In this document: positions 8,598 to 60,810 of the stretch, one piece after another
Numbering within the stretch: the first letter of the stretch is position 1
Layout of the letters: every line of letters starts with the position of its first letter
DNA from: a virus
Taxonomy: Duplodnaviria > Caudoviricetes
Direction: 5' to 3' (one strand)
DNA length: 64,000 nucleotides
IMG/VR virus record: IMGVR_UViG_3300005512_000026
Coordinates: 588 to 64,587 of that record
Made by a program: the position numbers and the translations under genes
Notes under the pieces: model-generated
Told to the model about the DNA's origin: nothing
Seen by the model: the letters and a program-made list of their open reading frames with translations, nothing else
The model's database searches: none

Positions 8598-9078
8598 ACA
8601 CATCAGGACTACCGTTGAGGCTCCACGTATAGTCACATCTACTGTTGAAGCTCCCGGTGGGATTACCCTCAAGGACGGGCGACGCATTACTGGAACCGTA
8701 GTAATTCCTGATGGGCGTGTCGGTTACGGTGATAAGCAGTCGCACGCTCTCATGGCTGGTGACACTGTAGACCGTGTATCGACAGACTCGACTGCTGGTG
8801 ACAGGGCTTACGAAGAGACCTTGCAGCAGTGGGACGTTGACCCGATGAAGCGCGCTGCTGATGTAAAACTAGCCAAACTGTTCTCAAAGAACCCTGCTGT
8901 CAAGATGTTTTACAACCCAGCGGATAAGACTTGGGATGTTCATTATCTGCACGCAGACGAGAATACTGGCGTTGTAGTTCCTCACAGCAAGAAACTTACT
9001 GATGCCCAAGCGGGTAATCTTTACGAGCAGTATCAAGAGGCACAACTGAAGAAACTTCTTCAGAAACCACAGGAGTAG
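8590..9078 (+). CDS. Hypothetical protein
   Basis: 162 aa ORF overlapping neighbours in operon. Confidence 0.55.
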   Translation: MAKHIRTTVEAPRIVTSTVEAPGGITLKDGRRITGTVVIPDGRVGYGDKQSHALMAGDTVDRVSTDSTAGDRAYEETLQQWDVDPMKRAADVKLAKLFSKNPAVKMFYNPADKTWDVHYLHADENTGVVVPHSKKLTDAQAGNLYEQYQEAQLKKLLQKPQE

Positions 9079-9080
9079 GT

Positions 9081-10373: not shown

Positions 10374-12859
10374 TGCCGAACGCAGGATACGACTCAGACA
10401 TAGTTGTTTCCAACGCAGACGGTACTACCAATCTGCTGAAACTAACGCTGTGGAACAACGACCCGAACCGACCTGGTGGTTGGGAAGAAGTACCTGTTCC
10501 TACTACGCCAGTTCCACAAGCGCAGGGAGACAGCAACTACTCCGCTATTGACCCTGTATACGGGCGTGTCTACTCACAGGTGGACTGGTCTGGTGGCTTC
10601 GGTTTGTCGCGCTGCTCACAGTTGTCATCGTGTGATGAGTACGGATACACAGACGGTGTTCTTGCAATGTTCGAGGGAGAGTTGATTCCTTCGTACAAAG
10701 AAGATGAAGTAGACGCTATTGTGCGTAACGGTCGCTTCGAGACTGGCAACACTACTGGATGGACTGACGGTACGAACACAACAGTCGCATCATCCACTAA
10801 CTCTCGTTCAGGCACGTACTCTCTATCTATAACCGCTGACGCTAATAGTGGCACATGCACACAGAACTACGTGGGAACGGACACGGTTCTTCGCAGTCGA
10901 GAGATAACTGCTGTTGCTTACGCACGGCGAGTATCTGGAACTGGAAATATCTCTCTTGGAGTTGCAGATGGTGTTGGCACAAGTACCTCGTCAACTTCTA
11001 CAGATTCAGACTGGGCGCTGCTCGAAGTAACCCGAACGATAGATGCTTCGGCTACAGCCATACAATTTATCTTTACTCTATCTGTCAGTGGTGACGAGTT
11101 CGAGATTGATGACGTTGCCGTAATTCTGACAGGTGGTAGCGAGTGGAAGTCTCGACCTGTTGAGTTTGGCGGTAACTACTACGCCTCTATGGGCAGAGCT
11201 ATCGTCAAGTGGGACGAATCCAACGATGTCTTCTTGCCGGTATACGTTGATGACACCAATGAGATCACCTCAGTAGTTCCATACGAAGGCACTTTATATG
11301 CTGGGCGTGGCACTGCTGATAACTATTTGATTAGCACTGACGGTACAACGTGGAGTGACCCGACTACAAACTCTGGGAACAGCCGCCTTGCTACTTTCTT
11401 TGGCAGAGTGAAGAACTCTCGTGGCGACTGGGCGCTAATGAAAACCCGCGCCAACCAAGTGTCTATATCTGTATCCCCTTCTGATACTGCGAATTGGGGT
11501 GCAGAGATACAGGCTGGTGACTCAGATCGTGCAATTACCAGCCTTACCCCAGCAGCAGGAACCGCTTACGTTGGGCGTGAAGACGGCTTGTTCGTATACA
11601 ACAGCCGCACAAATCTGTTTGAAGACGTAGAACCGGACGCTAACTTCTTCCCGTCCACGAACAACTTCAGCCGTGCTATCGGTCGAGGTGGTGCTATATG
11701 GGCTTCAGGAGGTCAGCAGACGTTCTGGACAGTGACCCCAACGGGTAGAGGTGCTAACCACCAATGGAGCGATGTCTCTCACATGTTCCAGGCTGCGGCT
11801 TACAAGGGCTTCGGCGGAACAGTTGCAGGGTTGGCACAAGATCGCTCCAACGTATTCGTAGCGCTTGCGGATAACGCTGCCAGTGCAACTAACTCGTTTC
11901 CGTACACGTTCCCGTTCCTGTTCTCTACAGCAGGTATATCCGAGCGTGTTCGCCTTATCTCTATACGGAACATTCGCCGTGACGACGACTCCGCACAAGC
12001 GTTTACTGAGTTTGCTTCTGGTGTTGCTGTTCACACAATGACATCGTTTGCCGTGTCCACGATAGACCAACTTGGCAGACATGACGATGGAAGCACGTCG
12101 TCGTTGTTTGCGCTTGGGACGTACACAGACAGTACGATCTCGGCAACAGACAAGGACACCCCAAGAGCTGTACGACTCACCATTCCTCGTGATAACGAAA
12201 ACCCGCGCCGTGCCACTACTCCTAACGTGCGTTTAGAGGGAGATTATTTTTCGTCTTGGATTGACTTCAACTATCCAGACACCGAAAAGGCAGAAGGGAC
12301 ACTTACGCTTGGTTCCAGGAACTTTTCTAGTGGCTCCAAGTATGTGACTGTGTGGTACAAAACAGATGACGCTACGGATGATGATGGTACTGGCTGGACT
12401 CTCTGGGGTGACGACGGTGTATTTGATACGTCGCCATCAGAAACAAAAGCAGCGGTTCTTACCACGCCGGTAACATTCAAGCGCATCCGTTTCCGTGTTC
12501 GGTTTACTACAGACTCAGCGACTGACGACCCGCCAGCAGTTACCTCTATGGTGTTCAAGGCTGTCTGGAACGAAACAGAACCACGCAAGTTTAGGGGCTC
12601 CGTAAAACTGTCTGATAGGCGTTCACAAATGTTGCGTAGACAGCCTAAGAAGTCTCTGCGTTCTGCTGATGTAACTAAGTTAGACAGTCTTCGTAAACAG
12701 CCGTTCATTCAATTGGTGACACCTGACGGGGAAACACTGAACGCATCGCTTGCTATTCGTCGTCGGCGTACTGGGGCGAGAGTAAGTTCTACTCGTGGTG
12801 TTCCGATTGACCAGACTAATGTAATTGACCTAGAGTTCACAGAACTGTTGACCAGCTAA
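10373..12859 (+). CDS. Podovirus tail nozzle (tubular protein B-like) with CBM4/9-like insertion
   Basis: 828 aa beta-propeller-like; insert 'VRNGRFETGNTTGWT...FEIDDVAV'. Confidence 0.55.
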   Translation: MPNAGYDSDIVVSNADGTTNLLKLTLWNNDPNRPGGWEEVPVPTTPVPQAQGDSNYSAIDPVYGRVYSQVDWSGGFGLSRCSQLSSCDEYGYTDGVLAMFEGELIPSYKEDEVDAIVRNGRFETGNTTGWTDGTNTTVASSTNSRSGTYSLSITADANSGTCTQNYVGTDTVLRSREITAVAYARRVSGTGNISLGVADGVGTSTSSTSTDSDWALLEVTRTIDASATAIQFIFTLSVSGDEFEIDDVAVILTGGSEWKSRPVEFGGNYYASMGRAIVKWDESNDVFLPVYVDDTNEITSVVPYEGTLYAGRGTADNYLISTDGTTWSDPTTNSGNSRLATFFGRVKNSRGDWALMKTRANQVSISVSPSDTANWGAEIQAGDSDRAITSLTPAAGTAYVGREDGLFVYNSRTNLFEDVEPDANFFPSTNNFSRAIGRGGAIWASGGQQTFWTVTPTGRGANHQWSDVSHMFQAAAYKGFGGTVAGLAQDRSNVFVALADNAASATNSFPYTFPFLFSTAGISERVRLISIRNIRRDDDSAQAFTEFASGVAVHTMTSFAVSTIDQLGRHDDGSTSSLFALGTYTDSTISATDKDTPRAVRLTIPRDNENPRRATTPNVRLEGDYFSSWIDFNYPDTEKAEGTLTLGSRNFSSGSKYVTVWYKTDDATDDDGTGWTLWGDDGVFDTSPSETKAAVLTTPVTFKRIRFRVRFTTDSATDDPPAVTSMVFKAVWNETEPRKFRGSVKLSDRRSQMLRRQPKKSLRSADVTKLDSLRKQPFIQLVTPDGETLNASLAIRRRRTGARVSSTRGVPIDQTNVIDLEFTELLTS

Positions 12860-12871
12860 AGGCGGCAAGAA

Positions 12872-14335
12872 ATGGCATTCAAACATTCCAGTGTAGGAAC
12901 TGAATTAACTCAGGCAGAGTACGAGGCAACAACAGCGCACGTACTAGACTCTCAGGCAACAGGCGATCTCATTTACGCTGACGCAGCGACAACAATGACG
13001 CGCCTCGGAATTGGCTCTGCTGCACAGTATCTATCGGTTACTGGCGGTGTTCCTGCGTGGAAGTCGATTCTCGATGAAGACAACATGGCATCTAATAGTG
13101 CTACTGATGTCGCGTCCCAGCAATCCATCAAGGCATACGTGGACTCCCAGATTGGCTCCAACAACGAGTTGTCTGAAGTTCTTGCCAACGGGAACACCAC
13201 TGGTGCTAACGACATCATCGTTTCATCAGGGCAAGCGATCACCACGAACACCATCAGCGAGACTACTGCTGCATCTGGTGTCACGATTGACTCGGTGGTA
13301 CTCAAAGATGGTGGCTTTACTACCGCTGGTGATTCCTTTATTGGTAACGGCAACGGACTCGTTGTAGGGCACACGGCGCAGGAGTCAATCGGTGGTGCGG
13401 GTGTTTCCGAGTTGCAAGTATTGGGTACTGCTGGCGGGGATGCTGCCATTGGTGTTATTCGGGTATCAAACGATACTGGCGGAGCCTCGATAACCCTCGC
13501 AAAGTCTCGTGGTGCTTCTATTGGAGCGCATACTGTTGTCCAAGATAACGACCCGCTTGGGCGTATCGACTTTGCTGGTGATGATGGTGCTGACTACAAC
13601 GCTGTCGGAGCAGCCATTCACGCAGAGGTAGACGGAACCCCTGGCACAAACGATATGCCGGGCAGGCTGGTGTTCAAAACGACAGCAGACGGCGCTCAAG
13701 CAGCAACAGAAGCCCTCCGTATCGACTCGTCGCAGAACACCATCATCCCAGCGACAAAACGTTTGTATCTCGACGGTGGCTCCAATACCTACCTAGTCGA
13801 ATCAGCCGGAGACGTTATCGACATCGTTGTAGGTGGCGGGGCGACTATGGCGGTCGGTGCTGCCGGTGCGTGGATGGCAAGTGGTCACAACTTCACGATC
13901 CAGTCTGGGGACAAGCTCTACCTCGACGGCGGATCCAACACGTACTTCACTGAGGCAGCAGCCGGCACCGTGGATCTCTACGTTGGCGGATCTCAGGAGT
14001 TCCGGTTTGAATCAGACGGCGATTTCCACGCAGATGGAGACGTTTATGCCTTCTCGACGACCACAAGCTCCGACATTAGGTTGAAGAAAAACGTCGTCCA
14101 GTTTGAAAACGCTCTGGACACGGTGAAAGCTCTCCGTGGTGTCGAGTGGGACTGGATCCGAGAGGAGAAGGGTCATTCTGCCGGCTTGATCGCACAAGAG
14201 GTCGAGGAGGTTATGCCATACCTCGTCAAGACTGGCGGGATTGCCAAGGGCGAACCCATGAAAACGCTGAACTATAACGGTCTGATTGGTCTGATGGTCG
14301 AGGCAATCAAGGAACTTGCTGAGAGGATCAACTAA
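12872..14335 (+). CDS. Tail fibre with C-terminal peptidase S74 intramolecular chaperone (X N-terminus + shared block + Y C-terminus)
   Basis: 'SDIRLKKNV...GLIAQEVEEVMPYLV...NYNGLIGLMVEAIKEL' S74 signature; spans repeat copy 1. Confidence 0.85.
   Translation: MAFKHSSVGTELTQAEYEATTAHVLDSQATGDLIYADAATTMTRLGIGSAAQYLSVTGGVPAWKSILDEDNMASNSATDVASQQSIKAYVDSQIGSNNELSEVLANGNTTGANDIIVSSGQAITTNTISETTAASGVTIDSVVLKDGGFTTAGDSFIGNGNGLVVGHTAQESIGGAGVSELQVLGTAGGDAAIGVIRVSNDTGGASITLAKSRGASIGAHTVVQDNDPLGRIDFAGDDGADYNAVGAAIHAEVDGTPGTNDMPGRLVFKTTADGAQAATEALRIDSSQNTIIPATKRLYLDGGSNTYLVESAGDVIDIVVGGGATMAVGAAGAWMASGHNFTIQSGDKLYLDGGSNTYFTEAAAGTVDLYVGGSQEFRFESDGDFHADGDVYAFSTTTSSDIRLKKNVVQFENALDTVKALRGVEWDWIREEKGHSAGLIAQEVEEVMPYLVKTGGIAKGEPMKTLNYNGLIGLMVEAIKELAERIN
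13108..13734 (+). repeat. Direct repeat copy 1 (627 bp; exact core 13197-13734)
   Basis: Base-by-base match to 55583-56209; 6 mismatches, all in 13171-13196. Confidence 0.95.
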
Positions 14336-15036
14336 TGGCGATTGGCACAGGGCAAGTCTCTCTGAGCGATATCCAGACAGAATACGGTGGGTCGTATCCG
14401 ATCCAGCTTTCCGAGTATTACTCCAAAGGGAACGCACCTGCGTCCGGTGAGATTCAGCTATGGGCTGACTTTCAAGGAACATCGGCTGACGCTCATACGC
14501 TGATCAGTTCACAAACGGCTAGCGCAAGTTCTTCAATCGACTTCACATCTGGAATCGACTCTACTTACGACGTATACGAGTTGCGTGTGGTCAACGCCCA
14601 CGGCTCAGTAGACCACGCAGAGTTCGGATGCCAGTTCAACCAGTCAGGCGGTAGTGGCTGGAACGAAACAATCCAGTCCGTGTTCTTTGAGTATTACAAC
14701 CGTGAGGACGGGGGGAACCAAGCACTCACGATTCGAGACACGATGGATCAGGCGAACGGGACAGCTCTACAACCGCTTGCCCGAGATGTGTCTCACGACA
14801 GCGACTCAGGGGTGAACCTTATCATGAACATATTTGGGCCATCGAGCACCACGTACGTGACAAACTTCTACTCGGTATCAGTCGAAATGCAGCATCAAGA
14901 TGCCTACCCTGCCTATGCCCGGCAGTCGTTTGCCAGCGGGTACATCAATACGACAGCAGCGATCGACGAGATTCAATTTAGGTTCTCCTCCGGGAACATA
15001 GCCTCAGGTGAGTTCTACCTGTTCGGAGTCAGCTAA
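14335..15036 (+). CDS. Fibre-tip/adhesin-like protein, paralogue 1 (extra N-terminal fibre-attachment domain)
   Basis: N-term 'QVSLSDIQTEYGGSYPIQLSEYY'; then ~180-aa domain shared with next two genes. Confidence 0.55.
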   Translation: MAIGTGQVSLSDIQTEYGGSYPIQLSEYYSKGNAPASGEIQLWADFQGTSADAHTLISSQTASASSSIDFTSGIDSTYDVYELRVVNAHGSVDHAEFGCQFNQSGGSGWNETIQSVFFEYYNREDGGNQALTIRDTMDQANGTALQPLARDVSHDSDSGVNLIMNIFGPSSTTYVTNFYSVSVEMQHQDAYPAYARQSFASGYINTTAAIDEIQFRFSSGNIASGEFYLFGVS

Positions 15037-15575
15037 TGGCACACACTCTGATCTCATCACAAACCGCCTCCACCAGTGCGACGATCGACTTCACATCTGG
15101 AATCGACTCGACCTACGACATATATGAATTTCATTTCATAAACTGCCATCCTGCTACCGACCTTGTTCACTTCCAGATGCAAGCGAATATCGTCGGTGGC
15201 ACAGGCTGGAATGAAACGATCACATCAGGGTTTTACATCTCGTACTACAACGAAGGCGGGACTGACGGGGGTGTGACTTACAACGCCACATACGATCAAG
15301 ACCAAGACACGGCGTTTCAGTCGCTGTTTTACAACGCCAGCAACGGAAGTGACGAATCTCTCTCAGGAATCCTCACGCTTTACAACCCGTCGAGCACAAC
15401 CTTCGTCAAATACTTCACCGCTCGAACTGAGGGACTTCATCACAATGGTCCATATACGATGGACGCTTTTGCTGGCGGTTACTTCAACACAACTTCTGCT
15501 ATCGACGAAATCCGGTTTAAATACTCCTCCGGGAACATCGACGCTGGTGAGTTCAAGCTATACGGAGTCAGCTAA
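15036..15575 (+). CDS. Fibre-tip-like protein, paralogue 2
   Basis: 'TLISSQTAS...IDFTSGIDSTYD.YE' and 'AIDEIRFKYSSGNIDAGEFKLYGVS' shared with neighbours. Confidence 0.55.
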   Translation: MAHTLISSQTASTSATIDFTSGIDSTYDIYEFHFINCHPATDLVHFQMQANIVGGTGWNETITSGFYISYYNEGGTDGGVTYNATYDQDQDTAFQSLFYNASNGSDESLSGILTLYNPSSTTFVKYFTARTEGLHHNGPYTMDAFAGGYFNTTSAIDEIRFKYSSGNIDAGEFKLYGVS

Positions 15576-16114
15576 TGGCATACACGCTTATCTCAGAACA
15601 AACAGCATCGGCAAGTGCGACGCTTGATTTCACCACAGGGATCGACAGCACCTATGACCTGTATGAGTTTCACGTGATCAACGCCCACCCTGCCACCAAC
15701 GCTAAAGACCTCGGCTTCCAAGCCAACGCTGCCGGGCAGACTGGTTTCAACGAGCAGATCACATCATCCCATTACAGGGCGTACCACAATGAGGCAGATA
15801 CCGCAGCATATTTATGGTCAGGCTATCCGGGGCAATCCCAGAGTAACGGAACGGCGTACCAAACCCTGTTCCACGAAGTCGGTAATGGCGCAGACGAGTG
15901 TGCGAGCGGGATTCTCAAAATCTGGCAGCCGAGTTCATCGACTTATCTCACGCACTTCCAAGCGACGTTCACAGGGTATTATGCCGCGAACTTCGTAATG
16001 TTCTCGTTCACGAACGGTTACATTCATACCGCTACTGCGATCGACGAGATCAGCTTCAAGTTTTCTTCGGGGAACATCGACGATGGAACATTCAAACTAT
16101 ATGGAGTCACCTAA
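15575..16114 (+). CDS. Fibre-tip-like protein, paralogue 3
   Basis: Same N- and C-terminal motifs as paralogues 1-2. Confidence 0.55.
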   Translation: MAYTLISEQTASASATLDFTTGIDSTYDLYEFHVINAHPATNAKDLGFQANAAGQTGFNEQITSSHYRAYHNEADTAAYLWSGYPGQSQSNGTAYQTLFHEVGNGADECASGILKIWQPSSSTYLTHFQATFTGYYAANFVMFSFTNGYIHTATAIDEISFKFSSGNIDDGTFKLYGVT

Positions 16115-17416: not shown

Positions 17417-17770
17417 ATGGTTGAACCGCCAAAACAAACTCTCGTAAATGGCAAGCCTGTCGAGGACGAGGATCCCGATGAAACAACAGATAGCACAGTG
17501 GATCAAGGATCTGGCGATCTTCACGGCGAGGGAGCTACTAACGGCAGCGAGGAACAGGCTGGAACCGGAGCAAGATCCGGTAGTGATTCAGCCGACGAAA
17601 CGCAGACTATCCCCACGTCTAAGCAGGAAATCAAAGAGCGAGCCAAAGGCGTAGTCGAACGACTCAGAAGGGATGGGCCAGAGCCGGTTCGGAGGCAAGC
17701 GAAAGGTCTTGTCGACAAGGCGTTCGATGCTATCGACGCTGGCTTTGATCGCTGGTTCGGCGATAAGTAA
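17417..17770 (+). CDS. Acidic disordered N-terminus plus amphipathic C-terminal helices; first gene of Y TatC cassette
   Basis: ATG 17417 after GAGGT; 117 aa; positional analogue of 58911-59273. Confidence 0.6.
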   Translation: MVEPPKQTLVNGKPVEDEDPDETTDSTVDQGSGDLHGEGATNGSEEQAGTGARSGSDSADETQTIPTSKQEIKERAKGVVERLRRDGPEPVRRQAKGLVDKAFDAIDAGFDRWFGDK

Positions 17771-17880
17771 TGGGGACGATTGCCGGGCTGTTCCTAGCGA
17801 TAGGCGGGGCTGTCTACATCCTCGTCAATATCGTCATGAGTTTCGGTGACGACGCTCGGAGCAAGCTCGGCAAGAAGTAA
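17770..17880 (+). CDS. 36-aa single-TM peptide (MGTIAGLFLAIGGAVYILVNIVMSFGDDARSKLGKK)
   Basis: Hand-translated; TAATG coupling at both ends. Confidence 0.6.
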   Translation: MGTIAGLFLAIGGAVYILVNIVMSFGDDARSKLGKK

Positions 17881-18119
17881 TGGGAACATTCTTCACAATC
17901 TTCTTAGTTTCATTCATCGCTGCCTCGGCAGGATCGAACGCGTTGTTCTGGATCTGGAATGATGCCCACCACACGATCGGCTGGCTCATCTTCACCGGGA
18001 TCTTCGTTGCCGTCGCCTACTTCATGGCGGAGATGAAAACCCGAGGAGTTGCCCGAGTGTGGGAACCTCGCTTCCTAAAAGCAAGAAAAGTTGTAGACTC
18101 ACTGACACGACGGGGATAG
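17880..18119 (+). CDS. 79-aa two-TM protein with basic tail (holin-like topology)
   Basis: Two hydrophobic segments, short loop, K/R-rich C-terminus. Confidence 0.6.
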   Translation: MGTFFTIFLVSFIAASAGSNALFWIWNDAHHTIGWLIFTGIFVAVAYFMAEMKTRGVARVWEPRFLKARKVVDSLTRRG

Positions 18120-18141
18120 ATCTCCCCAAAGGAGAAAAATC

Positions 18142-18309
18142 ATGGACAACACATTAGTAATCATCGGAATCATCGCTTTCGTCGTCGCTCTTGGTGGCGG
18201 TGGCTGGCTCTACCGCCGAGGCTTCCTGAGAGGCAAGGCGAAAGAGAACGAGACTGCTGTCGCTGCTGCCGAGGCAGCCGTGGCACAGATGCGCGAAGAA
18301 TCCGCATAA
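18142..18309 (+). CDS. 55-aa single-TM peptide with post-TM RRGFLR motif
   Basis: AAGGAG RBS; MDNTLVIIGIIAFVVALGGGGWLYRRGFLRGKAKENETAVAAAEAAVAQMREESA; stop abuts TatC start. Confidence 0.65.
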   Translation: MDNTLVIIGIIAFVVALGGGGWLYRRGFLRGKAKENETAVAAAEAAVAQMREESA

Positions 18310-19128
18310 TTGCCGCGCTGGTTCTGGCGCTATTTCAGATGGATCGTTCTACCGTTCCTGACGGCTATGGGGACGGCACTTTACTATAGTGCCGACATAT
18401 TCCAGTTCCTCATTGGCCCGGCAGTGGACGCTCTATCGCCATTTGACGGGAAGCCCACCATCACCACGCCGGGCGGGATGGTTTCACAAACCGTCTGGCT
18501 CGGGATCAAGGCGGGAATCGCTGCGTCGATTCCTTCTGTCTGGATTCGACTTCTCTTAGATCTCAGGCATGAAGGTTGGTTTCCCCGTCATTTTTGGTGG
18601 AGGCTTATCGCTTTCACCGGAGCCGGGGCGCTCAGCGCACTAGCTGGACTGTCATTCGTCTATTACGTGATGATGCCGTTCGGCTTGCGGTTCTTGCTCG
18701 GCTTCGGGAATGAAGTCGTTGTCCCGCTGATCACGCTCCCGTCCTATATAGGACTCGTCACCTCGATGGCGTTGTCGGTGGCCATATTCTTTGAGATCCC
18801 GCTGATAATGTTCATAGTCTCCAACATAGGATTGATCGGCTACCAGCGATTCAGAAGGCTCCGGAAGTTCTGGATCCCCACAGCCCTGATCTTTGGAGCG
18901 ATCCTGTCGCCCGGCACAGATCTCGTCAACGCTGCGCTTCTGATCATCCCGCTCATCCTGCTTTACGAGGTTGGAATGTTCATCGTCTGGATCTCCAAAC
19001 CTGCCGACGGTAACTACCTCTGGATCAAGACAATTTGGGGTGCTGTATTCTGGATAGCAACGCGTCCAGTCAGGGCATACCGGAAAGTCGAGAGAGAGCT
19101 AGTCAGGCATGGGATTATTTCGTGGTAG
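18310..19128 (+). CDS. tatC: TatC-family membrane protein, divergent (phage Y)
   Basis: Six TM segments; 'FVYYVMMPFGLRFLL', 'FEIPL', 'GAILSPGTD...IPLILLYEVG' TatC motifs. Confidence 0.8.
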   Translation: MPRWFWRYFRWIVLPFLTAMGTALYYSADIFQFLIGPAVDALSPFDGKPTITTPGGMVSQTVWLGIKAGIAASIPSVWIRLLLDLRHEGWFPRHFWWRLIAFTGAGALSALAGLSFVYYVMMPFGLRFLLGFGNEVVVPLITLPSYIGLVTSMALSVAIFFEIPLIMFIVSNIGLIGYQRFRRLRKFWIPTALIFGAILSPGTDLVNAALLIIPLILLYEVGMFIVWISKPADGNYLWIKTIWGAVFWIATRPVRAYRKVERELVRHGIISW

Positions 19129-19222
19129 GAAACTCTGGACAATCCCCATCGTCTTAGTCGCTGCTTACTACGCAGTTGACCACTGGCTCGAAATAGTCTA
19201 CTACTCCGGCAAGAAGTCGTGA
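19109..19222 (+). CDS. 37-aa TM peptide (MGLFRGRKLWTIPIVLVAAYYAVDHWLEIVYYSGKKS)
   Basis: Hand-translated; overlaps tatC end and next gene (GTGA). Confidence 0.45.
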   Translation: MGLFRGRKLWTIPIVLVAAYYAVDHWLEIVYYSGKKS

Positions 19223-19320
19223 AACGGGTGTGGTTTCACCTCTGGCCACTCCTCCTCCTAGCAGCAGTTTATGGATCCGCAGCGTACGTCGGCGTGTACG
19301 TCTGCTCATGGTGCGGGTAG
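19219..19320 (+). CDS. 33-aa TM micropeptide ending in CSWC
   Basis: MKRVWFHLWPLLLLAAVYGSAAYVGVYVCSWCG; clear homologue at 60715-60810. Confidence 0.75.
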   Translation: MKRVWFHLWPLLLLAAVYGSAAYVGVYVCSWCG

Positions 19321-19358
19321 ACAAAAAGTTGACAAACGCTGTCCGGCTCCCATAGAAT
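19316..19358 (+). promoter_or_regulatory. Sigma70-type early promoter P1 with tandem GTAGAC/GTTGAC repeat
   Basis: TTGACA(19329)-18 bp-TAGAAT(19353); GGTAGACAAAAAGTTGACAAA. Confidence 0.75.
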
Positions 19359-19402: not shown

Positions 19403-19624
19403 ATGGAAACTAAAGTAATCGAACACGGCATCGAACTCGATAAAGATGCCAACGGTCTTTACGGTGCATACGCTCCAACTGGCTTTTACTTCCGATTCTC
19501 AGGGCTACACACGATTGGGTATGCAGGTAGCACTATGAAAGAGGTTCGCCAGTCGATCAAAGAAGATGGCGGACTGTCCGCCTGTCCAGAGGGCTGCAAC
19601 GGGACAGGCGAACACGCCATCTAA
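19403..19624 (+). CDS. Early hypothetical protein
   Basis: ATG 19403 after AAGGA; 73 aa; downstream of P1. Confidence 0.55.
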   Translation: METKVIEHGIELDKDANGLYGAYAPTGFYFRFSGLHTIGYAGSTMKEVRQSIKEDGGLSACPEGCNGTGEHAI

Positions 19625-19655
19625 CCAATATCAATACAAGTAAGAGGTGACACAG

Positions 19656-20009
19656 ATGATGGACAAAGAAACGCTTACAACCGCTCTCCTCGATCCGGAA
19701 GTCGTAGCAGGATGCCTAGTCGTTCTCTACGCCTCTCAGACGGCAGAGGAGCAGGGGTCGCACACGACTCGCGAGCGTAACGGTATGGGATTCAACGCTT
19801 TCGACGCAGCGTTTGGATCCAGCCTCGCCGAGCAGGTAATCGGCAAGGGCAAGCTCACGACCACACAGGTCGCCGTTGGACGCAAGATCCTCCGGAAGTA
19901 CGTGAATCAGATCTGCGCCCGTGTGGACGAGCCTCCACGCCAACCGCTGAACGTCCGGACGATCATGGATCATCCGATTGAATCAGATCTCACGGAGATA
20001 CCACTGTAA
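19656..20009 (+). CDS. Early hypothetical protein
   Basis: GAGGTGA RBS; 117 aa. Confidence 0.6.
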   Translation: MMDKETLTTALLDPEVVAGCLVVLYASQTAEEQGSHTTRERNGMGFNAFDAAFGSSLAEQVIGKGKLTTTQVAVGRKILRKYVNQICARVDEPPRQPLNVRTIMDHPIESDLTEIPL

Positions 20010-20218
20010 TGATCAACTTTTACGGCAAGGAAATTGAACCGGGCGAAGTAGTCATCGAAGTCCGGTGGCACAAGCCGATCCTCGACGGAGTGGAACAGGA
20101 GCTGGGAGTCTGGAAAAAGGATTTCCGGATCACGTCCCAAGACCTAGCGGATCACGCATCGGAACTGCTAGAGGGGTCTCCGTGGGAGCACTCTGAATAC
20201 CGGATCCAAACTCGGTAG
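20009..20218 (+). CDS. Early hypothetical protein
   Basis: 69 aa, TAATG coupling. Confidence 0.55.
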   Translation: MINFYGKEIEPGEVVIEVRWHKPILDGVEQELGVWKKDFRITSQDLADHASELLEGSPWEHSEYRIQTR

Positions 20219-20256
20219 ACAAAAAGTTGACAAACCCCTGATGCGTCCCATATAAT
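20214..20256 (+). promoter_or_regulatory. Sigma70-type early promoter P2
   Basis: TTGACA(20227)-18 bp-TATAAT(20251); same upstream GGTAGACAAAAAG. Confidence 0.8.
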
Positions 20257-20308
20257 AGACGTATCAGCCGGGGGAGTCCCGGTCAGGATCGAGGGAAAGG
20301 GAAGCCCA

Positions 20309-21133
20309 ATGAAATTCGCACAGCACAAAGAAAACACGTCCACCGTCGGAACAAATATCAACGATCAGTTCTGGAAAGACATAAGAACCATTTACGAGGC
20401 TGAATCAGCCGAGCGAGGAATCAGCGTTCCGGTGATCTCGCTTTACGACGGATACCTCTCGACAAAGGGGTGGACACGGACTCTCGGTGACTACAGCAAT
20501 TTCCAAGAGCAGATCAGAATATTCGGACTACTCACACGACCACGACGCGAGGTGTGGCTCACCGCTCTCCACGAATACGCACACCACATCGTCAACAAAG
20601 AGCGCAAGGAGGCTATCCGCCAAGGTGACAACGACAGATACAACGAATTGAAAGTAGGAGGTCGAGCGCACGGCAAGGCGTTCAAAATCGCACTAGCAGA
20701 ACTGGAACACAAATACTATGAGGAGGGTCACTCCTCAGAGGGGTCGGCAGGATGCCGAGGTTCATCCCGACGACACCGCAGCGACTACAACAACGAGAAC
20801 AAAATTTGCGAGGTAATCATGGCAGCTAAGAACGGCACGAAAGCCACCACGAAAAAATCAAATACTGCAACCAAAACCAAGACTGAACTTCCATACTTCG
20901 AGGTCACGATCACGGTGGGAAAACCATTCTCCTCGATGATCAAGGGAGTGGTCTACCAGCCAGCAGCATTTACCATCGTCGCTCAGGCTCGCGACGAGAT
21001 CGCTGCACAGAACAAGGCTCTCCGATCATTCGGGATTGCACACCGTCTCGACGTTCAGCACACGGTCGAGGTCAAGCCTATCGACAAGGCTCCTCGCACC
21101 AAGGCGTACCAGCCGAACCAGAAAGCTGCATAG
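20309..21133 (+). CDS. SprT-like zinc metalloprotease domain plus a probably separate C-terminal protein (internal start 20819)
   Basis: 'LHEYAHH...AHGKAFK' HExxH+H motif; GAGGT-ATG at 20810-20821. Confidence 0.55.
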   Translation: MKFAQHKENTSTVGTNINDQFWKDIRTIYEAESAERGISVPVISLYDGYLSTKGWTRTLGDYSNFQEQIRIFGLLTRPRREVWLTALHEYAHHIVNKERKEAIRQGDNDRYNELKVGGRAHGKAFKIALAELEHKYYEEGHSSEGSAGCRGSSRRHRSDYNNENKICEVIMAAKNGTKATTKKSNTATKTKTELPYFEVTITVGKPFSSMIKGVVYQPAAFTIVAQARDEIAAQNKALRSFGIAHRLDVQHTVEVKPIDKAPRTKAYQPNQKAA

Positions 21134-21276
21134 ACGACGAGCAGCGAGTTCGAGGGTACTTACACCCTCGGCTCCTGCGGGGAGGGTCGGAGCGTCGGGT
21201 ACAGGCTTCCCAACCGCCTCCGCTCCGGCACTCCCCGCAGGGGATTCCTGCAAAGACAAGTCAAGAGGTGACACAA

Positions 21277-21633
21277 ATGGGTTACAAAAGACTCACACCA
21301 GCTACGTTCACATCGCTCAACGCTTTCGTAGTTGTTCCATACAATCCCGATACTCCATACCAGCAGTACCGTGAGTTCACAGGGGGCGAGGTCAGGGCTG
21401 TCCGGGATCGAGACGGAGACGCTCTCAAAGCCTTACAGGGCATGGTAGGCGGTCTAATCGAACCGCTGTACTTCTACGACGCAGATCTGGACAAGGAATG
21501 GACGGTCTACGGCAATGAAGAGGCTCGCATTTACGGGATGGAGATCAACGCTGCTGCAACAGCGATGCTCGGTCACGTCATTTGTGGACCAGTCGTTTTC
21601 CACCCGGCTAGCTGGACACAGTGGGGCGACTAA
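21277..21633 (+). CDS. DUF3846-like protein
   Basis: 'LQGMVGGLIEP...YGNEEAR...NAAAT...ICGPVVF'; GAGGTGA RBS. Confidence 0.6.
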   Translation: MGYKRLTPATFTSLNAFVVVPYNPDTPYQQYREFTGGEVRAVRDRDGDALKALQGMVGGLIEPLYFYDADLDKEWTVYGNEEARIYGMEINAAATAMLGHVICGPVVFHPASWTQWGD

Positions 21634-22277
21634 TGACTACCGTAGTAACTATCACCGTCCCTACGTCTATGGGCAAGCCGTGGACGCTAGCGGACGCACA
21701 GGGAGCGCACAGGGCTGTCCGGGTACGGAAGATCGACGACTCCGCCACGGTACTCTTTGAAGCCGGTAACAGCCGGTGCGCCGTCGAGACGCGAGTGGAC
21801 AACGCAGTCTCGAATCACGACAAGACCCGGTGGGAATACTGGATCCCGGCAGGATTGCTCAAAGCGATGAAAGCCTATCGAATCCACTCGAAAACACCGT
21901 GGCACTACAGGATCGAGATCTTGGTCGAGGAGCGACGGGCAAGGGTGAGCTTCGGCGACTACAGCCTGTCCGGGGATCTCGTCTCGTCCTCACAGTTGCC
22001 GAGGTTCGACGCAGTGTGGGATCGACTCAAGCATGATGCAAAGAAGCTGGATCCAACCGAGCCTCGAATCGGTTTCCGGGGCAGCGAAATGGTCAAGGTT
22101 CTAAACGCCATGACCCGTATAACTGACCCGACAGAATTCTTCGTCCTGCCGGACTCCGGAATATTCAGCGAGGCAATCGGGATGCGCCGATTTATGACAG
22201 GCGTTGGATCCCGCTCAAAAGCGGCACTCATGCCGATATCCGTGGAGGATCACCGATTTCCGGTAGACAAACGGTAG
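21633..22277 (+). CDS. Hypothetical protein, weak resemblance to sliding-clamp (DnaN-like) fragment
   Basis: 'LPRFDAVW...IGFRGSEMVKVLNAM' pattern only; low confidence in function. Confidence 0.4.
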   Translation: MTTVVTITVPTSMGKPWTLADAQGAHRAVRVRKIDDSATVLFEAGNSRCAVETRVDNAVSNHDKTRWEYWIPAGLLKAMKAYRIHSKTPWHYRIEILVEERRARVSFGDYSLSGDLVSSSQLPRFDAVWDRLKHDAKKLDPTEPRIGFRGSEMVKVLNAMTRITDPTEFFVLPDSGIFSEAIGMRRFMTGVGSRSKAALMPISVEDHRFPVDKR

Positions 22278-22293
22278 ACAAATAGGTTAGACT
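22261..22293 (+). promoter_or_regulatory. Tandem CGGTAGACAAA x2 and promoter-like TAGACA-18-TAGACT upstream of HTH gene
   Basis: Exact 11-bp tandem repeat at 22261-22282. Confidence 0.55.
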
Positions 22294-22323
22294 GAAATCG
22301 TCAGTTTTAGTAGGAGATAGCCA

Positions 22324-22599
22324 ATGACAACAGCATCGTTCGAGTGGACACCGAAGCGCATCAAAGCGTTGCGTTCAAAAGTCCGCATGACACAAGCAGC
22401 CTTCGCCAAGCAGATCGGGGTGTCCCGGCTCACGATTGCGAACTGGGAGACGGAGTTCAAGTCACCGAGCTTGAACCATCAGGCGCACCTCGACAAGATT
22501 GCCGGGGACAACGGGATCACACGATCCATGCTCGACTCTCACACCAGCAATCAGAGGCACCCGGATCGCCCACGGCGAAAGATCCAGCGAGGTTCATAA
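22324..22599 (+). CDS. XRE/Cro-family HTH transcriptional regulator
   Basis: 'IKALRSKVRMTQAAFAKQIGVSRLTIANWETE'. Confidence 0.85.
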   Translation: MTTASFEWTPKRIKALRSKVRMTQAAFAKQIGVSRLTIANWETEFKSPSLNHQAHLDKIAGDNGITRSMLDSHTSNQRHPDRPRRKIQRGS

Positions 22600-24248
22600 T
22601 GCCGGTCGAGGTGACAGCAAGAGCAGCTACCGGAGAGATCCGGGCAAAGGCTCGGTATCCAGAGGGTCTATACCTAAAGCAGATCCCCGGAGCAAAGTGG
22701 GACAAAGCCGACAAAGCGTGGGTCATTCCCGCTACACCAGCCGGAGCCTTGAATCTTCGGTTAGCCACAAAAGAACGTGGATACGTCCTCAAAGGTGACT
22801 CACACATGGCGGAGCTTATCCGCATCGCCAAAGGGCAGTCCGAGGCGTTTGAGAACGTCAAAAAATCCGGGACGCTCGAACAGCCTGAGATCAGGAATTT
22901 CGACGCTTGGAGACACCAGCTTGAAGCGTTCAACTTCGCCAAGAATCTCGACGCAGTAATGCTCAACATGGAGATGGGTACGGGCAAAACTAAGGTCACG
23001 ATCGACGTGATCCAGAATGACCCAAACCTTCGCAGGATCCTCATTCTCTGCCCGGTCAGCGTTATCGGGGTGTGGCACAGGGAGATTCAGAAACACGGCG
23101 TTGGATTCTGGAACGTCCCGGTGCTACAGGGAGCGGTCAAGAAACGGGCTGAGTTATCCGCACAGGCGTTAGCGGACAACTCCGGGCGTACCGTCCTAAT
23201 CGTCAACTACGAGGCAGCGTGGAGAGAGCCACTCGCCAAGCTCCTCAAAGGTGAACAATTCGACGCAGTAGTGTTCGACGAGATCCACAAGATCAAGGCT
23301 CCGGGTGGAGTAGCTTCACGGTTCTGCCAAGCTCTCGCCAAGACAGCTCGCAAGAAGTTCGGGCTTACAGGGACGATGATGCCCGGCAGTCCGATGGATA
23401 TCTACGCTCAATTCCGAGCCTTGAACAGCGGGATCTTCGGAACTAGCTTTGCGAAGTTCAGATCCCGGTACGCAATCATGGGCGGGTACGGCGGGTATGA
23501 AGTCGTCGATTATCAGAACCAAGAGGAGCTTCGTGAGAAGATCCGGTTTATGACATACGAGGTTGGAGCCGACGTTCTGGATCTTCCAGAGGCGATACAT
23601 ACCTACCGGGAGTGTCAGCTTGGTCGGGACGCTCTCCGGGCGTACAGGGGCGTAGAAAACGACTTCTTTGCACAGGTCGAGTCAGGAGAGATCACCGCTT
23701 CAAACGCATTGGTCAAGCTCCTACGGATGAGGCAGATCACCGGAGGTCACGTAACCGACGACGACGGTGTAACAACCCAAATCGACAAAGCCAAAGAGAA
23801 GCTACTGGACGACACGCTGGAAGATCTCGGCGGTGAACCAACGGTTATCTTCTGCCAGTTCGTCGCCGACATAGACACGATCCGCAGGGTTGGCGAGGCG
23901 CGAGGGTTGAAAGTCCTAGAGCTATCAGGGCGGGTAAAACAGAACTTCGAGTTCCAAGAGGGTGAGGGAGACATCCTCGTCGTCCAGATCCAATCCGGAG
24001 GTGTGGGCATCGACCTGACTAGGGCAAGGTACTGCATCTATTACAGCGTTGGATTCAACCTCGGCGAATACCTCCAATCTCTCGCTCGCGTACACCGTCC
24101 GGGACAGGAGAGGAGCGTCACGTACATTCACCTCCTAGCAGCCGGGACGGTCGATCAAGCGGTCTATAACGCTCTCCAAAAGAAGCAGGACATTGTGGAA
24201 CACGTACTCCACGGTGATCTAGCGACAGAGGAGGTAGACAAGAAGTAA
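22599..24248 (+). CDS. SNF2-family DNA helicase
   Basis: 'EMGTGKT', 'FDEIHKIK', 'LTGT', 'QSLARVHRPGQ'; ATG 22599 coupled to HTH stop. Confidence 0.9.
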   Translation: MPVEVTARAATGEIRAKARYPEGLYLKQIPGAKWDKADKAWVIPATPAGALNLRLATKERGYVLKGDSHMAELIRIAKGQSEAFENVKKSGTLEQPEIRNFDAWRHQLEAFNFAKNLDAVMLNMEMGTGKTKVTIDVIQNDPNLRRILILCPVSVIGVWHREIQKHGVGFWNVPVLQGAVKKRAELSAQALADNSGRTVLIVNYEAAWREPLAKLLKGEQFDAVVFDEIHKIKAPGGVASRFCQALAKTARKKFGLTGTMMPGSPMDIYAQFRALNSGIFGTSFAKFRSRYAIMGGYGGYEVVDYQNQEELREKIRFMTYEVGADVLDLPEAIHTYRECQLGRDALRAYRGVENDFFAQVESGEITASNALVKLLRMRQITGGHVTDDDGVTTQIDKAKEKLLDDTLEDLGGEPTVIFCQFVADIDTIRRVGEARGLKVLELSGRVKQNFEFQEGEGDILVVQIQSGGVGIDLTRARYCIYYSVGFNLGEYLQSLARVHRPGQERSVTYIHLLAAGTVDQAVYNALQKKQDIVEHVLHGDLATEEVDKK

Positions 24249-24305
24249 ACAAATCGGGTACGCTTTACGACCCGGAATTTCCGGGGACGAGGTCAAGAGG
24301 TGACA

Positions 24306-24704
24306 ATGGATACAGACATCCTGCGGGAGTTCGTTCGGATCACAAAAGAGAAGGATGAACTAGACGCAAGGCTCACAGCTAAGAAGGCTGAACAGTCTCG
24401 CTTAGAGCAGCAAGTTCTCTACGAGCTTGCACAGAGCGGGATCCAGAACATCAAGATCGACGGCAAGACGCTCTACATGCGAGCGGACACCTACGTTTCG
24501 GTCAAGGAGGGTGTGGATCCCGAGGCAGCGATGAAAGTCCTAGACGACTTGGATCTAGGCGATTTCCACAAAGAGCGCATTACTCTCCAATCCGTATCTG
24601 CTTGGGTTCGGGAGCGTCGGCGTGAGGAGGAACAAATCCCGGCGGAATTTGAAGCAGTATTCAACACTAGCCCGGTTTACAGAATCGGGATAACGAGCAG
24701 CTAA
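24306..24704 (+). CDS. Gp157-like / recombination-associated small protein
   Basis: Coiled-coil N-term then 'GIQNIKIDGKTLYM'; GAGGTGACA RBS. Confidence 0.45.
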   Translation: MDTDILREFVRITKEKDELDARLTAKKAEQSRLEQQVLYELAQSGIQNIKIDGKTLYMRADTYVSVKEGVDPEAAMKVLDDLDLGDFHKERITLQSVSAWVRERRREEEQIPAEFEAVFNTSPVYRIGITSS

Positions 24705-24705
24705 G

Positions 24706-25488
24706 TTGACAAAGAAAACAAAGACAGAAGAAACAGCGATTGCAACGCTGGACACGATAGCGGACTACGCTATTGCGAACATAGATCCCGGTCTGAACAT
24801 CAAGGAGATCGTGGAAGCAAACACAGGCGGAGAGATCACACTAGGTCAACTCCCGCAGGTAACGATCCCGGCAGGGGGTGGAACAGTCTTCGAGATCCCG
24901 TCAGCTCTCGGCGACGACGAGGCGACCAAGGAGATCGAGGGTGTACTCATCTTCTGGAACGACCGACGCTCTTACTGGCGCACGTCACTCGACGAGGCTA
25001 GCGAGGACGACGACCGATCACCGGACTGCTTCTCGGCAAACAGCAAGGTAGGCGTAGGCACTCCCGGCGGAGACTGCTCCACATGCCAGTTCGCTAAGTG
25101 GGGATCCGATCCTAACGGCGGACAGGCTTGCAAAAGTCAGCGATTGTTCTTCCTCCTGCGACCGAACAACGTTATGCCTCTAGTCGTCCGGGCTGCACCA
25201 ACCTCGATAGCACCGAGCAAGAAATACCTGTTCGGACTAGCGTCAGAGCTGGTGCCTTACTGGGCGATCACTACGAAGCTCACGCTATCGAAACAGGGCG
25301 GTGGGAACATCGCTTACTCAACCCTCAACTTCTCGGCAGGGACACGTCTCAAAGACGGGGACTTGGCAGCGATTACCAAGTACCGAGACGAAATGCTCCC
25401 GGCACTAGAAGCCTCGACAGTCAACCCTCCGCCGCGGGCAACGGCGGAAGTCGGGGCAGTTGACGACAGCGATCTTCAGAGCCTATAG
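24706..25488 (+). CDS. Putative ssDNA-binding/annealing protein
   Basis: 'PDCFSANSKVG...CSTCQFAKWGS...ACKSQRL', acidic C-terminal tail. Confidence 0.55.
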   Translation: MTKKTKTEETAIATLDTIADYAIANIDPGLNIKEIVEANTGGEITLGQLPQVTIPAGGGTVFEIPSALGDDEATKEIEGVLIFWNDRRSYWRTSLDEASEDDDRSPDCFSANSKVGVGTPGGDCSTCQFAKWGSDPNGGQACKSQRLFFLLRPNNVMPLVVRAAPTSIAPSKKYLFGLASELVPYWAITTKLTLSKQGGGNIAYSTLNFSAGTRLKDGDLAAITKYRDEMLPALEASTVNPPPRATAEVGAVDDSDLQSL

Positions 25489-25505
25489 AAGATCAGTCGT
25501 TAGCG

Positions 25506-25533
25506 GGGGCGGATCCCGGACAGGATCCGCCCC
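25506..25533. terminator. Intergenic hairpin
   Basis: GGGGCGGATCC-CGGACA-GGATCCGCCCC, perfect 11-bp stem. Confidence 0.55.
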
Positions 25534-25547
25534 ACCGGGAAGCCTAA

Positions 25548-27218: not shown

Positions 27219-27385
27219 CCCCCAAAAAAAGTCCCCTATACGCGGGCGCGGGAGAAACAGAAAAAAAATATTTTTGGGGGTTACAGGGGTTACAATCAAC
27301 TCTGTGTCAACCGAAACGAGAACGAAAACAGGTGTAACCCCCGGCGACGGAAGTGGGGGTTACAAGGGGGTTACAGGGGGTTACA
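27214..27385. repeat. Iteron-like GGGG(G)TTACA cluster, candidate replication origin
   Basis: + copies at 27276, 27286, 27355, 27366, 27376; inverted copies at 27214 and 27333; A/T tracts; between primase and helicase. Confidence 0.7.
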
Positions 27386-27418
27386 AATTCCGTGAAACCG
27401 AATTCTTAGAGGTGACAA

Positions 27419-58779: not shown

Positions 58780-58914
58780 ATGAAAGCACTAGAACGGAAA
58801 GCGTGTATCAGATGCAAGCACGAGTGGTGGCCTCGAACAACTAGAGAGCCAGTGAGATGCCCTGCTTGCAAATCCCCTTACTGGAACAAGTCACGACAGA
58901 GGAAATCTAAATGA
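58780..58914 (+). CDS. 44-aa zinc-ribbon protein
   Basis: CIRC...WWPR....P..CPACKSPYWN; hand-translated. Confidence 0.6.
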   Translation: MKALERKACIRCKHEWWPRTTREPVRCPACKSPYWNKSRQRKSK

Positions 58915-59273
58915 CAACTAATCCAGAAACACCGGAGACCGACAACACTGAAGAAGAGGTTGTCGAGCCTGCTCCTAAGAAGAAGCCTGTGCGTAAGCGT
59001 AAGCCAGCAGCAAAGAAGCCGACTACTCGTAAAGCATCTCCCAAGAAGGTTCCGACTACACCAAAGGAATTTACTGAGGAAATCAAAGAGAACCTTACCG
59101 AGACTAAAGATCGTGTTGTTGAAGAAGCCGTTCAGCCAGCAAAAGAACTTATAGATAAGTGGGGCGGTATGGCGGACTACGCTGTGGATGCTGTGCTAAA
59201 CGCTAAAGATAATGCTCTTGCTTGGTGGGATGGTTTCGTAGGCAATGAGAAGAAGAAAGAAGAAGACGAGTAA
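58911..59273 (+). CDS. Charged disordered N-terminus plus amphipathic C-terminus; first gene of X TatC cassette
   Basis: 120 aa; analogue of 17417-17770. Confidence 0.6.
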   Translation: MTTNPETPETDNTEEEVVEPAPKKKPVRKRKPAAKKPTTRKASPKKVPTTPKEFTEEIKENLTETKDRVVEEAVQPAKELIDKWGGMADYAVDAVLNAKDNALAWWDGFVGNEKKKEEDE

Positions 59274-59537
59274 TGCACCCTTTAGGCTGGATGCTTCGCT
59301 TCTTTCTAATAGCGCTGCTTGGTGCAGCAACTGCGGAACAGGTTATGTCCTGGCTGCTACCGAATGTAGGTGATCCCGAAAAGGGGGTTACGTTTCGTGG
59401 CAGTGGGAACACTGATCGGAACTGTCGGGACGATGCGTAACTTTACATCATCTGTTCGTGGATACCGTCAAAAGGTTTTTGGCGGGGTAAACAAGTTTGG
59501 CGTTCTGGGTAAATTCAGCCGCCGAAAGGAACTGTAA
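59273..59537 (+). CDS. Two-TM holin-like protein interrupted by a +1 frameshift at a G5 run (59383-59387)
   Basis: Frame 0 stops at 59440; +1 frame gives second TM and basic tail to 59537. Confidence 0.5.
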
Positions 59538-59665: not shown

Positions 59666-60718
59666 TTGCACCCTCGTTCATCTTACGAACGGTGGTACAC
59701 AGTCGGGGAACGGTGGCGATGGACGGTAATGCTCTCTATTGCCGCCTTTTTCGCCGCTGCTCTCTCGACGTTTTATTGGCACGAAGAAGTGTTTGCTTTT
59801 CTTCTTGCCCCAGCAGACGGCAAACTATCTCCCTTCGACGGTAAGCCTATCGTCACTGTTCCCACAGGAGGCTTCGGAGCCACCCTGGGAATATCACTAT
59901 CAGCAGGCAAGATAGCTGCTATACCTGTTTTTGCGGTTGGCATTGTTGCCCTTGCAAAACCCCTGATGCCCCACAGTTGGTGGCAGCGCTTCTTAGCCAT
60001 CAATGTGACTGCTGGCTTTACCCTGTTTACTCTTGGTTGCGTGTTCGTTTACTACGTCATGCTTCCGGTGAGTATGAGGTTTCTTCTCTCGTATGCAGAC
60101 GACACCGTTGTATATGTAATAACCCTTGAAGCGTACTTAGAGATGGTGTTCGCCCTGTTCCGGTGGATAGGGCTGATCTTCTTGATTCCGTTGGGAATGA
60201 ACATGCTGGCTCGAACAGGTCAGTTTTCGTATCCAAGAGTCAAAGCGCTCTACAGACTGATCTTTTTTCTGACGTTGTTCTTTTCAGCACTTATCTCCCC
60301 AGGGCTTGACCCTGTGCTTACCGTAATGGTTGCTGTGCCGATGTATTCGCTGTACTTGGTCGGACTCGGTGGCGTGTGGGTCGTTAGGCCAGAGACAGGG
60401 AACTTCTTGTGGTTCTGGACGATGAAGCCTTGGTACGACAGATTGGGAATAACATGGCTGTCGTTGAGGGTTGCGGCTTTGGCGGTCTTGCTGATCGAAG
60501 CTGTTGTGTGGCTAGTAGACGCTGCACTGAGAACTGTTATCGGTCTAATGCGAGCGCTTCGGTCGCTCGTAGCGGCGCTTATTCGGTCTCGCCACGCACT
60601 GTATGCGTCAATCAGGCTGGAACAGCGTCTCTGGCGACTCTGGCTGCGTTTCTGGAGACTACCTGAACGCATTGGCTACTGGCTGGCAGACAAGATTGCT
60701 AATGTATTCTCACGATGA
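59666..60718 (+). CDS. tatC: TatC-family membrane protein, divergent, with long C-terminal extension (phage X)
   Basis: 'LSPFDGKP','FVYYVMLP...RFLL','ALISPGLDP...VPMYSLY'. Confidence 0.8.
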   Translation: MHPRSSYERWYTVGERWRWTVMLSIAAFFAAALSTFYWHEEVFAFLLAPADGKLSPFDGKPIVTVPTGGFGATLGISLSAGKIAAIPVFAVGIVALAKPLMPHSWWQRFLAINVTAGFTLFTLGCVFVYYVMLPVSMRFLLSYADDTVVYVITLEAYLEMVFALFRWIGLIFLIPLGMNMLARTGQFSYPRVKALYRLIFFLTLFFSALISPGLDPVLTVMVAVPMYSLYLVGLGGVWVVRPETGNFLWFWTMKPWYDRLGITWLSLRVAALAVLLIEAVVWLVDAALRTVIGLMRALRSLVAALIRSRHALYASIRLEQRLWRLWLRFWRLPERIGYWLADKIANVFSR

Positions 60719-60810
60719 GATTCCCACGCTGGCTGCTAGACCTGTTGCTGCTGGCGGCAGTGTACGGCATTACTGCGTACTGGGGAGTCTACGTCTGCGG
60801 GTGGTGCTGA
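60715..60810 (+). CDS. 31-aa TM micropeptide ending in CGWC
   Basis: MRFPRWLLDLLLLAAVYGITAYWGVYVCGWC; homologous to 19219-19320. Confidence 0.75.
   Translation: MRFPRWLLDLLLLAAVYGITAYWGVYVCGWC

Follow-up and report, generated by a model that had tools for sequence, protein, structure and literature searches.

A phage cassette centred on a TatC homologue lacking the twin-arginine binding site, and its possible role in endolysin-free lysis

Why should a tailed phage carry a homologue of TatC among a group of small membrane-protein genes at the very end of its late operon? The question is raised by a stretch of 64,000 nucleotides of viral DNA (here called the window; positions 588 to 64,587 of IMG/VR record IMGVR_UViG_3300005512_000026). 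An earlier note on this DNA had described seven tightly coupled genes ending at the first early promoter, and had offered lysis or egress, shut-off of the host Tat system, or superinfection exclusion as their function.

All seven open reading frames are present on the plus strand (Table 1), and comparison with the related cassette of locus L004 gives pN far below pS in each. The dN/dS values are 0.15 for TatC, 0.20 for gene C and 0.18 for the 36-residue peptide, with pS saturated for the rest. In order, the junctions are two TAATG overlaps, a 22-nt gap, an abutting TAA-TTG, a 20-nt overlap and a GTGA. The gap, which is the only junction that neither overlaps nor abuts, carries the ribosome-binding site AAGGAG. 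The TTG start of TatC is backed by homologues that have the same first residues at an ATG. As had been claimed, the cassette runs up to a near-consensus sigma70 promoter, which begins 9 nt past the last stop codon.

Not all seven genes are equally characteristic. The 37-residue product is a genuine reading frame, and its description as a transmembrane (TM) peptide needs qualification, its hydrophobicity being marginal (max KD19 1.47); homologues lie beside the phage TatC in about nine other loci. Relatives of the 33-residue TM-CxWC peptide occur in about a dozen loci as well as in a second cassette within the window, and the peptides downstream of TatC in general vary between loci. Only A, B, C and TatC are universal, and the proposed cassette of seven genes is here reduced to a core of four.

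Table 1 Features of the two cassettes and of the repeat that joins the two parts of the window
Feature	Position	Strand	Remarks
Gene A (core), 117 aa	17417..17770	+	acidic disordered N-terminus, C-terminal amphipathic helices, no TM
B', 36-aa single-TM peptide	17770..17880	+	repeats the N-terminal half of B; candidate antiholin-like short form
Gene B (core), 79 aa	17880..18119	+	two hydrophobic helices, then a tail both basic and amphipathic; possibly a holin-like effector
Gene C (core), 55 aa	18142..18309	+	single TM between acidic residue and basic tail; topology like TatA/B
Phage TatC, 272 aa, TTG start	18310..19128	+	TatC homologue without twin-arginine binding site
Accessory 37-aa peptide, weakly hydrophobic	19109..19222	+	not universal; pN < pS
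Accessory 33-aa TM peptide, CxWC end (CSWCG)	19219..19320	+	not universal
Sigma70-type promoter TTGACA-18-TAGAAT	19329..19358	+	11/12 consensus matches; opens early region
Tail-fibre repeat, 665 bp	13070..13734	.	second copy 55545-56209; last 538 bp identical
Second cassette, gene A homologue	58911..59273	+	
Second cassette, gene B, in two frames	59273..59537	+	0-frame stop 59440; TTT-CGT 59393-59398; +1 frame end 59537
Second cassette, gene C homologue, 40 aa	59540..59662	+	
Second cassette, phage TatC, 350 aa	59666..60718	+	34% identical to first phage TatC
Second cassette, 31-aa TM-CxWC peptide	60715..60810	+	

The record is viral, with two structural gene sets joined by the 665-bp repeat, both copies of which lie inside two tail-fibre genes. 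The GC content is 50–51% in the flanks and 53–55% in the middle. When the fibre halves are swapped at the repeat, both frames stay open, and IMG/VR record G002 is syntenic with window positions 38562–55545, followed by the cassette and 19659–30125. The contig is probably a chimeric assembly of two phages joined at the repeat, in which the first cassette would belong to a sipho-type circle of 42,475 bp (with terminase, portal, protease and capsid genes) and the second (58911–60810) to a podo-type phage. The earlier placement of the first cassette after fibre and assembly genes holds in that it closes a late operon; the tail genes further upstream, at 40–13069, are probably those of the other phage. 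Nearer to the cassette, at 14335–16114, are three tandem paralogous tail genes (about 179 aa) and a 107-aa gene, an arrangement that also precedes the cassette in many related phages, L001, L002, L013, L028 and L117 among them. The early region contains two pairs of intergenic repeats (19618–19656 with 32061–32099, and 20208–20309 with 31329–31427), which are likely to be shared promoter or leader elements.

The 272-residue product is a TatC homologue, as had been recognised. It matches Pfam PF00902 at 94 bits (cut-off 25.1), and its AF2 model (pLDDT 79.6) superimposes on Aquifex TatC (4b4a) with a Z score of 19.5 and an rmsd of 3.4 Å over 222 aligned residues. By profile and predicted fold, it is a member of the TatC family. 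The E. coli structure shows the twin-arginine motif bound by H12, E15, F94 and E103, and a bond between T208 and E8 of TatB (PMC13323110). Equivalent positions were set by motif and by alignment to 4b4a, and were compared over the 87 non-redundant sequences of the clade to which the protein belongs. The HLxELR and FxxPGLxxxE motifs are found in none of the 87. F94 is present in 2% of them, against 93% of cellular TatC, and E103 in under 11%, against 87%; position 103 is now R (37%), S (15%), K (11%) or H (11%). By contrast P48, P85, F124, Y126, P131, Y154, F169, P172, T/S208, P209, D211 and P221 are kept in 95–100% (T/S208 in 99%, D211 in 95%), and E227 is retained. E/Q170 is kept in 72%, being Leu in the X group (cassettes of two types, X and Y, are distinguished here), and Q215 is mostly lost, with Q in 14%, where cellular TatC has Q in 63% and M in 26%. 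The dN/dS is 0.10–0.21 across five pairs. The selective loss of binding residues, the kept scaffold and these dN/dS values show that the gene was not simply captured intact and is not in decay. With H12, E15, F94 and E103 lost, the protein would not be a working Tat receptor.

The 87 sequences form one clade, which is viral wherever context is seen, although most of the proteins come without genomic context. IQ-TREE analysis of 57 sequences recovers the clade (UFBoot 98) as sister to a canonical TatC named as SAR202 (100), the two together lying inside a group with named Dehalococcoidia proteins (UFBoot 98), a placement that carries long-branch caveats; in a FastTree analysis of 207 sequences the origin is weakly supported (0.45). 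For 75 of the 87, the best cellular match is MBM3946417.1 from a SAR202 cluster bacterium, with an identity of 30% for the first-cassette copy and up to 50% for basal members. The phylogeny suggested in the earlier note thus places the phage proteins within SAR202/Dehalococcoidia TatC. These analyses indicate that a SAR202-type tatC was captured once, lost its cargo-recognition site, and has been under purifying selection since, alongside three fixed partner genes in phages of different types. Two TatC proteins near the base of the clade, P0079 and P0085, have partly eroded motifs (PSPNP replaces TPTFD), and are possibly intermediates or cellular paralogues. Among cultured phages there are only weak partial matches near 30% identity, none spanning the protein. 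A single BFVD match was dismissed as an artefact, its 418 residues being the length of the TatC-lysozyme crystallography fusion 4htt.

On the evidence of TatC alone, the host of these phages is probably SAR202/Dehalococcoidia. A capsid homologue search gave no host signal, only inconsistent MAG labels. SAR202 and the marine Dehalococcoidia radiation are described as lacking peptidoglycan and having S-layers (PMC11994032, PMC10284905); sialic acid production (PMC11994032) and growth in culture (PMC10444878) have been reported for SAR202. Record G006 carries NeuB and CTP_transf_3, and the window has, at 33560–37431 and 46235–46927, a cluster of methyltransferase, PAPS-reductase-like, DNA methylase and ParB-like genes, together with a gene that by eye looks like a cytidylyltransferase.

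The phage TatC is found in about 60 metagenomic loci, many of them redundant, and in five IMG/VR records, one of which is complete; further viral scans added no loci. The order A-B-C-TatC is seen in 42 of the 43 loci with enough upstream sequence, a count made with profiles partly trained on the same loci, and the one exception looks misassembled. Other phage genes are present on 23 of the 30 loci of at least 4 kb. One of these, L084 (JADFGE010000070.1), is a phage contig in a Planctomycetota MAG whose other TatC match is on a different contig; it is probably mis-binned. In both sipho- and podo-type phages the late operon finishes with the cassette, and either the early promoter or a convergent early block comes next. 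In L004, a Y-type cassette lies beside genes (compared over L004:5143-6679) 88–100% identical to those of the X-type phage (window 62173–63627). A Y-type cassette in a near-identical X-phage background indicates that the two types are exchangeable between phages, as lysis modules are. A DedA/YqaA-like membrane protein (identified by eye) adjoins the cassette, on either strand, in several loci (L002:6232-6681, L054:2585-3025).

The partners of TatC have been further analysed. The product of gene A is soluble and amphipathic (max KD19 0.09, hydrophobic moment 0.65), and has a homologue upstream of TatC in 42/43 loci. In X-type loci (L001 and L002 included) a 44-aa CxxC...CxxC zinc-ribbon peptide stands just before it, at 58780–58914 in the window. 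Gene C has an acidic residue (D/E) immediately before the TM segment in 27 of 28 peptides, and a basic tail. Its uncharged span (median 20) is longer than the short helix of TatA/B. C and TatC are translationally coupled, TatC starting between −1 and +3 nt from the C stop in 28/29 loci; 16 of 28 of these starts are GTG or TTG rather than ATG. The idea that the small peptides are TatA/B subunits gained no support: PF02416 (TatA) has no match in the 28 C peptides or in three viral records, and hhalign to alphaproteobacterial TatB gives 22% for C, 1.4% for B and 1.8% for A. C is probably not a true TatA, its likeness to TatA/B being in topology only. PHROG matches that might make C an Rz-like spanin are weak (E 0.008–0.04) and were treated as generic TM noise. 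None of A, B and C matches a holin, spanin or TatA family above noise.

The AF2 model of the gene B product (pLDDT 66) has helices at residues 2–25, 31–54 and 58–78. Gene B has 42 unnamed homologues and falls in no Pfam or PHROG family, and a set of 44 B homologues gave no PHROG or Pfam holin match, although holin diversity is too great for this to be an exclusion. In the first cassette B is intact, and the 36-aa gene preceding it duplicates its N-terminal half: the peptide scores 62 against the N-half of B from L007, a score that none of 2000 shuffles reaches, while the best of the 28 C peptides scores 36. This peptide also occurs in L004–L006 and L009. In another group of loci, which includes the second cassette, B is split, and in all 18 distinct sequences the split is at TTT-CGT. 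Read in the 0-frame, the protein terminates with a short, charged tail; shifting by +1 would give back a full-length B homologue over 78 columns (shifted against intact B, hhalign 98.3%, E 1.8e-14). In the TatC genes of the same phages, TTT makes up 36% of Phe codons and CGT 13% of Arg codons. An internal start for the +1 part was rejected, since many loci have GTA, GTC or GTT as its first codon. We conclude from the sequences that UUU-CGU in B is a putative programmed +1 frameshift site joining the two frames.

Three further B genes (L051:404, L060:890 and L118:9618) are split at T-TTT-TTA/C, where a −1 shift would repair them, and the products match the intact-B profile over their length (E 3e-24 for two and 1e-6 for the third). 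The B gene of L062 is split too, at CCCCCTTTTTG. Many other B genes (the L003, L014 and L039 groups) are unbroken and show no sign of a short form. Short and long B would thus appear to have been reached by three separate routes, namely a +1 shift, a −1 shift and a duplicated 36-aa gene. That there are three routes to a one-helix and a two-helix B suggests selection on their ratio, by analogy with holin/antiholin timing.

The cassette occupies the position of lysis genes, and a search was made for the enzymes expected there. Peptidoglycan-hydrolase Pfam families are absent from the 79 ORFs of the window, from the 132 ORFs of the complete 38.8-kb G001, G002 and three late regions, and from the 68 ORFs of G005, G006 and two further loci; Amidase_2 is found in 0/5 IMG/VR records. 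Such scans could miss a divergent lysin or S-layer protease, and the complete genomes covered are G001 and the inferred 42.5-kb circle. One scan gave a weak XhlA match (E 1.6e-4), and the seven families not listed for that scan all had E above 4e-4. By Pfam, then, the cassette recurs in phages with no detectable endolysin (the window, G001, G002, G005 and G006), an outcome that the earlier note had named as support for its reading, and with no peptidoglycan hydrolase it would not be classed as a holin-endolysin system.

On the basis of these observations, we favour the reading that A, B, C and TatC form a late, endolysin-free, membrane-breaching lysis module of phages of peptidoglycan-less SAR202/Dehalococcoidia, and would put its probability at roughly 0.55. 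Simulations of the Tat core complex show the bilayer thinned from 38 to 26 Å (PMC13323110), and local, TatA-dependent disruption of the membrane is considered part of Tat transport (PMC13673990). Since a phage leaving a wall-less cell has mainly the membrane to breach, such strong thinning makes a lysis module the preferred reading. The module is, as had been suggested, Tat-derived and repurposed, and lysis or egress is the best fit among the functions offered, host Tat shut-off and superinfection exclusion fitting less well. The SAR202 origin, the lost signal-binding site, the two forms of B and the chimeric contig do not figure in the earlier note.

How such a module might work is a matter on which we are more tentative, at a little below even odds. 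We suggest a domesticated, substrate-independent Tat core, in which TatC and C would thin the membrane and the frameshift-timed two-helix protein would open it, lysing the SAR202 cell. TatC would assemble with C in the TatA/B slot, the acidic residue of C lying against T/S208, and this membrane-thinning core would need no substrate trigger. The two-helix B would gather at the core and open a lasting lesion. The short one-helix B, produced by non-shifted translation or from the duplicated 36-aa gene, may damp or time the lesion in an antiholin-like manner, and the amphipathic A may help to widen or hold it. Counting against a lysis module are the lack of holin, spanin or TatA family matches for A, B and C, the loss in most members of Q215 from the TatA/B polar site, the uncharged span of C, the capsid search without a host signal, and the many B genes without a short form.

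Other functions have to be weighed against this one. The complete predicted fold, with D211, E227 and T/S208 kept, would suit a private translocase or insertase, in which TatC and a TatA-like C export or insert a protein of the phage, be it A, an S-layer-degrading enzyme or the second helix of B, by way of a non-twin-arginine signal. The strict coupling of C to TatC and the frequent non-ATG starts suggest an excess of C over TatC, as TatA exceeds TatC, and TatC has signal-peptide insertase activity (both PMC13673990). Such a translocase is nonetheless unlikely: the old binding surface is variable at position 103, not newly conserved, E170 is Leu in the X group, there is no S/T-R-R-x-F-type motif among 203 phage proteins, and no candidate cargo enzyme was found in the Pfam scans. 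Somewhat less likely again is a poison of the host Tat system or a superinfection exclusion factor, a cargo-blind TatC that joins host Tat or soaks up TatA/B and so blocks export of receptors or surface proteins. F94A/E103A TatC blocks substrate interaction (PMC5201420); a TatC without these residues, derived from the host's own and with T/S208 kept, would be a natural dominant-negative. The late-operon position does not fit this, nor does the lack of any integrase family in G001 or the window; Q215 is eroded, identity to the host protein has drifted to 30–50%, and A, B and the frameshifts are left unaccounted for. A twin-arginine mimic in C (YRRGFLR) was rejected, being present in only 1/28 peptides.

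The cassette is co-transcribed with tail and fibre genes, and its proteins might instead anchor assembly at the membrane or aid DNA crossing at infection. We regard such a virion-linked entry or assembly module as improbable, since one would hardly expect a membrane protein with six helices in an HK97-type virion, which has no lipid, and the cassette is common to different tail types. The possibility that most nearly disappears is that of a host tat fragment captured recently or now in decay, or of a cellular paralogue on contigs wrongly called viral. It could appeal to the many clade members without genomic context and to L084 in its bacterial MAG, but is largely refuted by the single deep clade, the low dN/dS, the selective loss of binding residues alone, the IMG/VR records and the phage genes beside so many of the longer loci.

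If these phages do lyse their hosts with such a substrate-independent Tat core, lysis of a new class would have been found, and with it a natural test, always switched on, of the model in which Tat transport works by membrane weakening. SAR202 abound in the ocean, and the cassette offers a concrete candidate for the exit of their phages as well as a gene by which to mark them; to our knowledge, how tailed phages leave bacteria without peptidoglycan is largely an open question. The phage TatC is also a natural experiment on Tat, with cargo recognition removed and the rest kept, which could show the scaffold's own effect on the membrane. To this gene B adds what look like programmed frameshifts that arose more than once, independently, in a gene for a phage membrane protein.

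The earlier note knew of no characterised phage system of this kind, and we agree: neither full-text searches of the literature nor a review of Tat evolution from 2026 gave a paper on a phage-encoded TatC, and cultured phages show no full-length relative. With canonical TatC (PF00902; MBM3946417.1; 4b4a, 9dzz) the phage protein shares the six-helix fold, the scaffold residues, T/S208 and D211, and an adjoining single-TM gene. It differs in lacking HLxELR, F94, E103 and, mostly, Q215, in having a new C-terminal GNYLW and amphipathic extension, in its viral late-operon context, and in having partners not recognisable as TatA/B. A TatC that has lost signal binding has its closest precedent in haloarchaeal TatCt, which contains TatC domains without F94/E103 and is thought to act only as a scaffold (PMC13673990). 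TatCt is a cellular 14-TM fusion paired with an active TatC, whereas the phage protein is viral, has six TM helices and is of Chloroflexota origin.

For gene B the natural comparison is with the S105/S107 holin/antiholin pair of lambda, small late membrane proteins that are two products of one gene with dual starts. B is likewise a small late membrane protein with, it appears, two products and a lysis-cassette position, but it is linked to TatC, matches no known family and has neither an endolysin nor a spanin detected beside it; its products differ by a C-terminal helix, by way of frameshift or duplication, and not by dual starts. The putative shift site also has a counterpart, the +1 frameshift of influenza PA-X at UCC-UUU-CGU (PMC8310308). 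In gene B the ribosomes are bacterial and the shifted product, as read from the sequence, is the full-length ancestral protein, while the same UUU-CGU core is shared by 18 distinct phage sequences.
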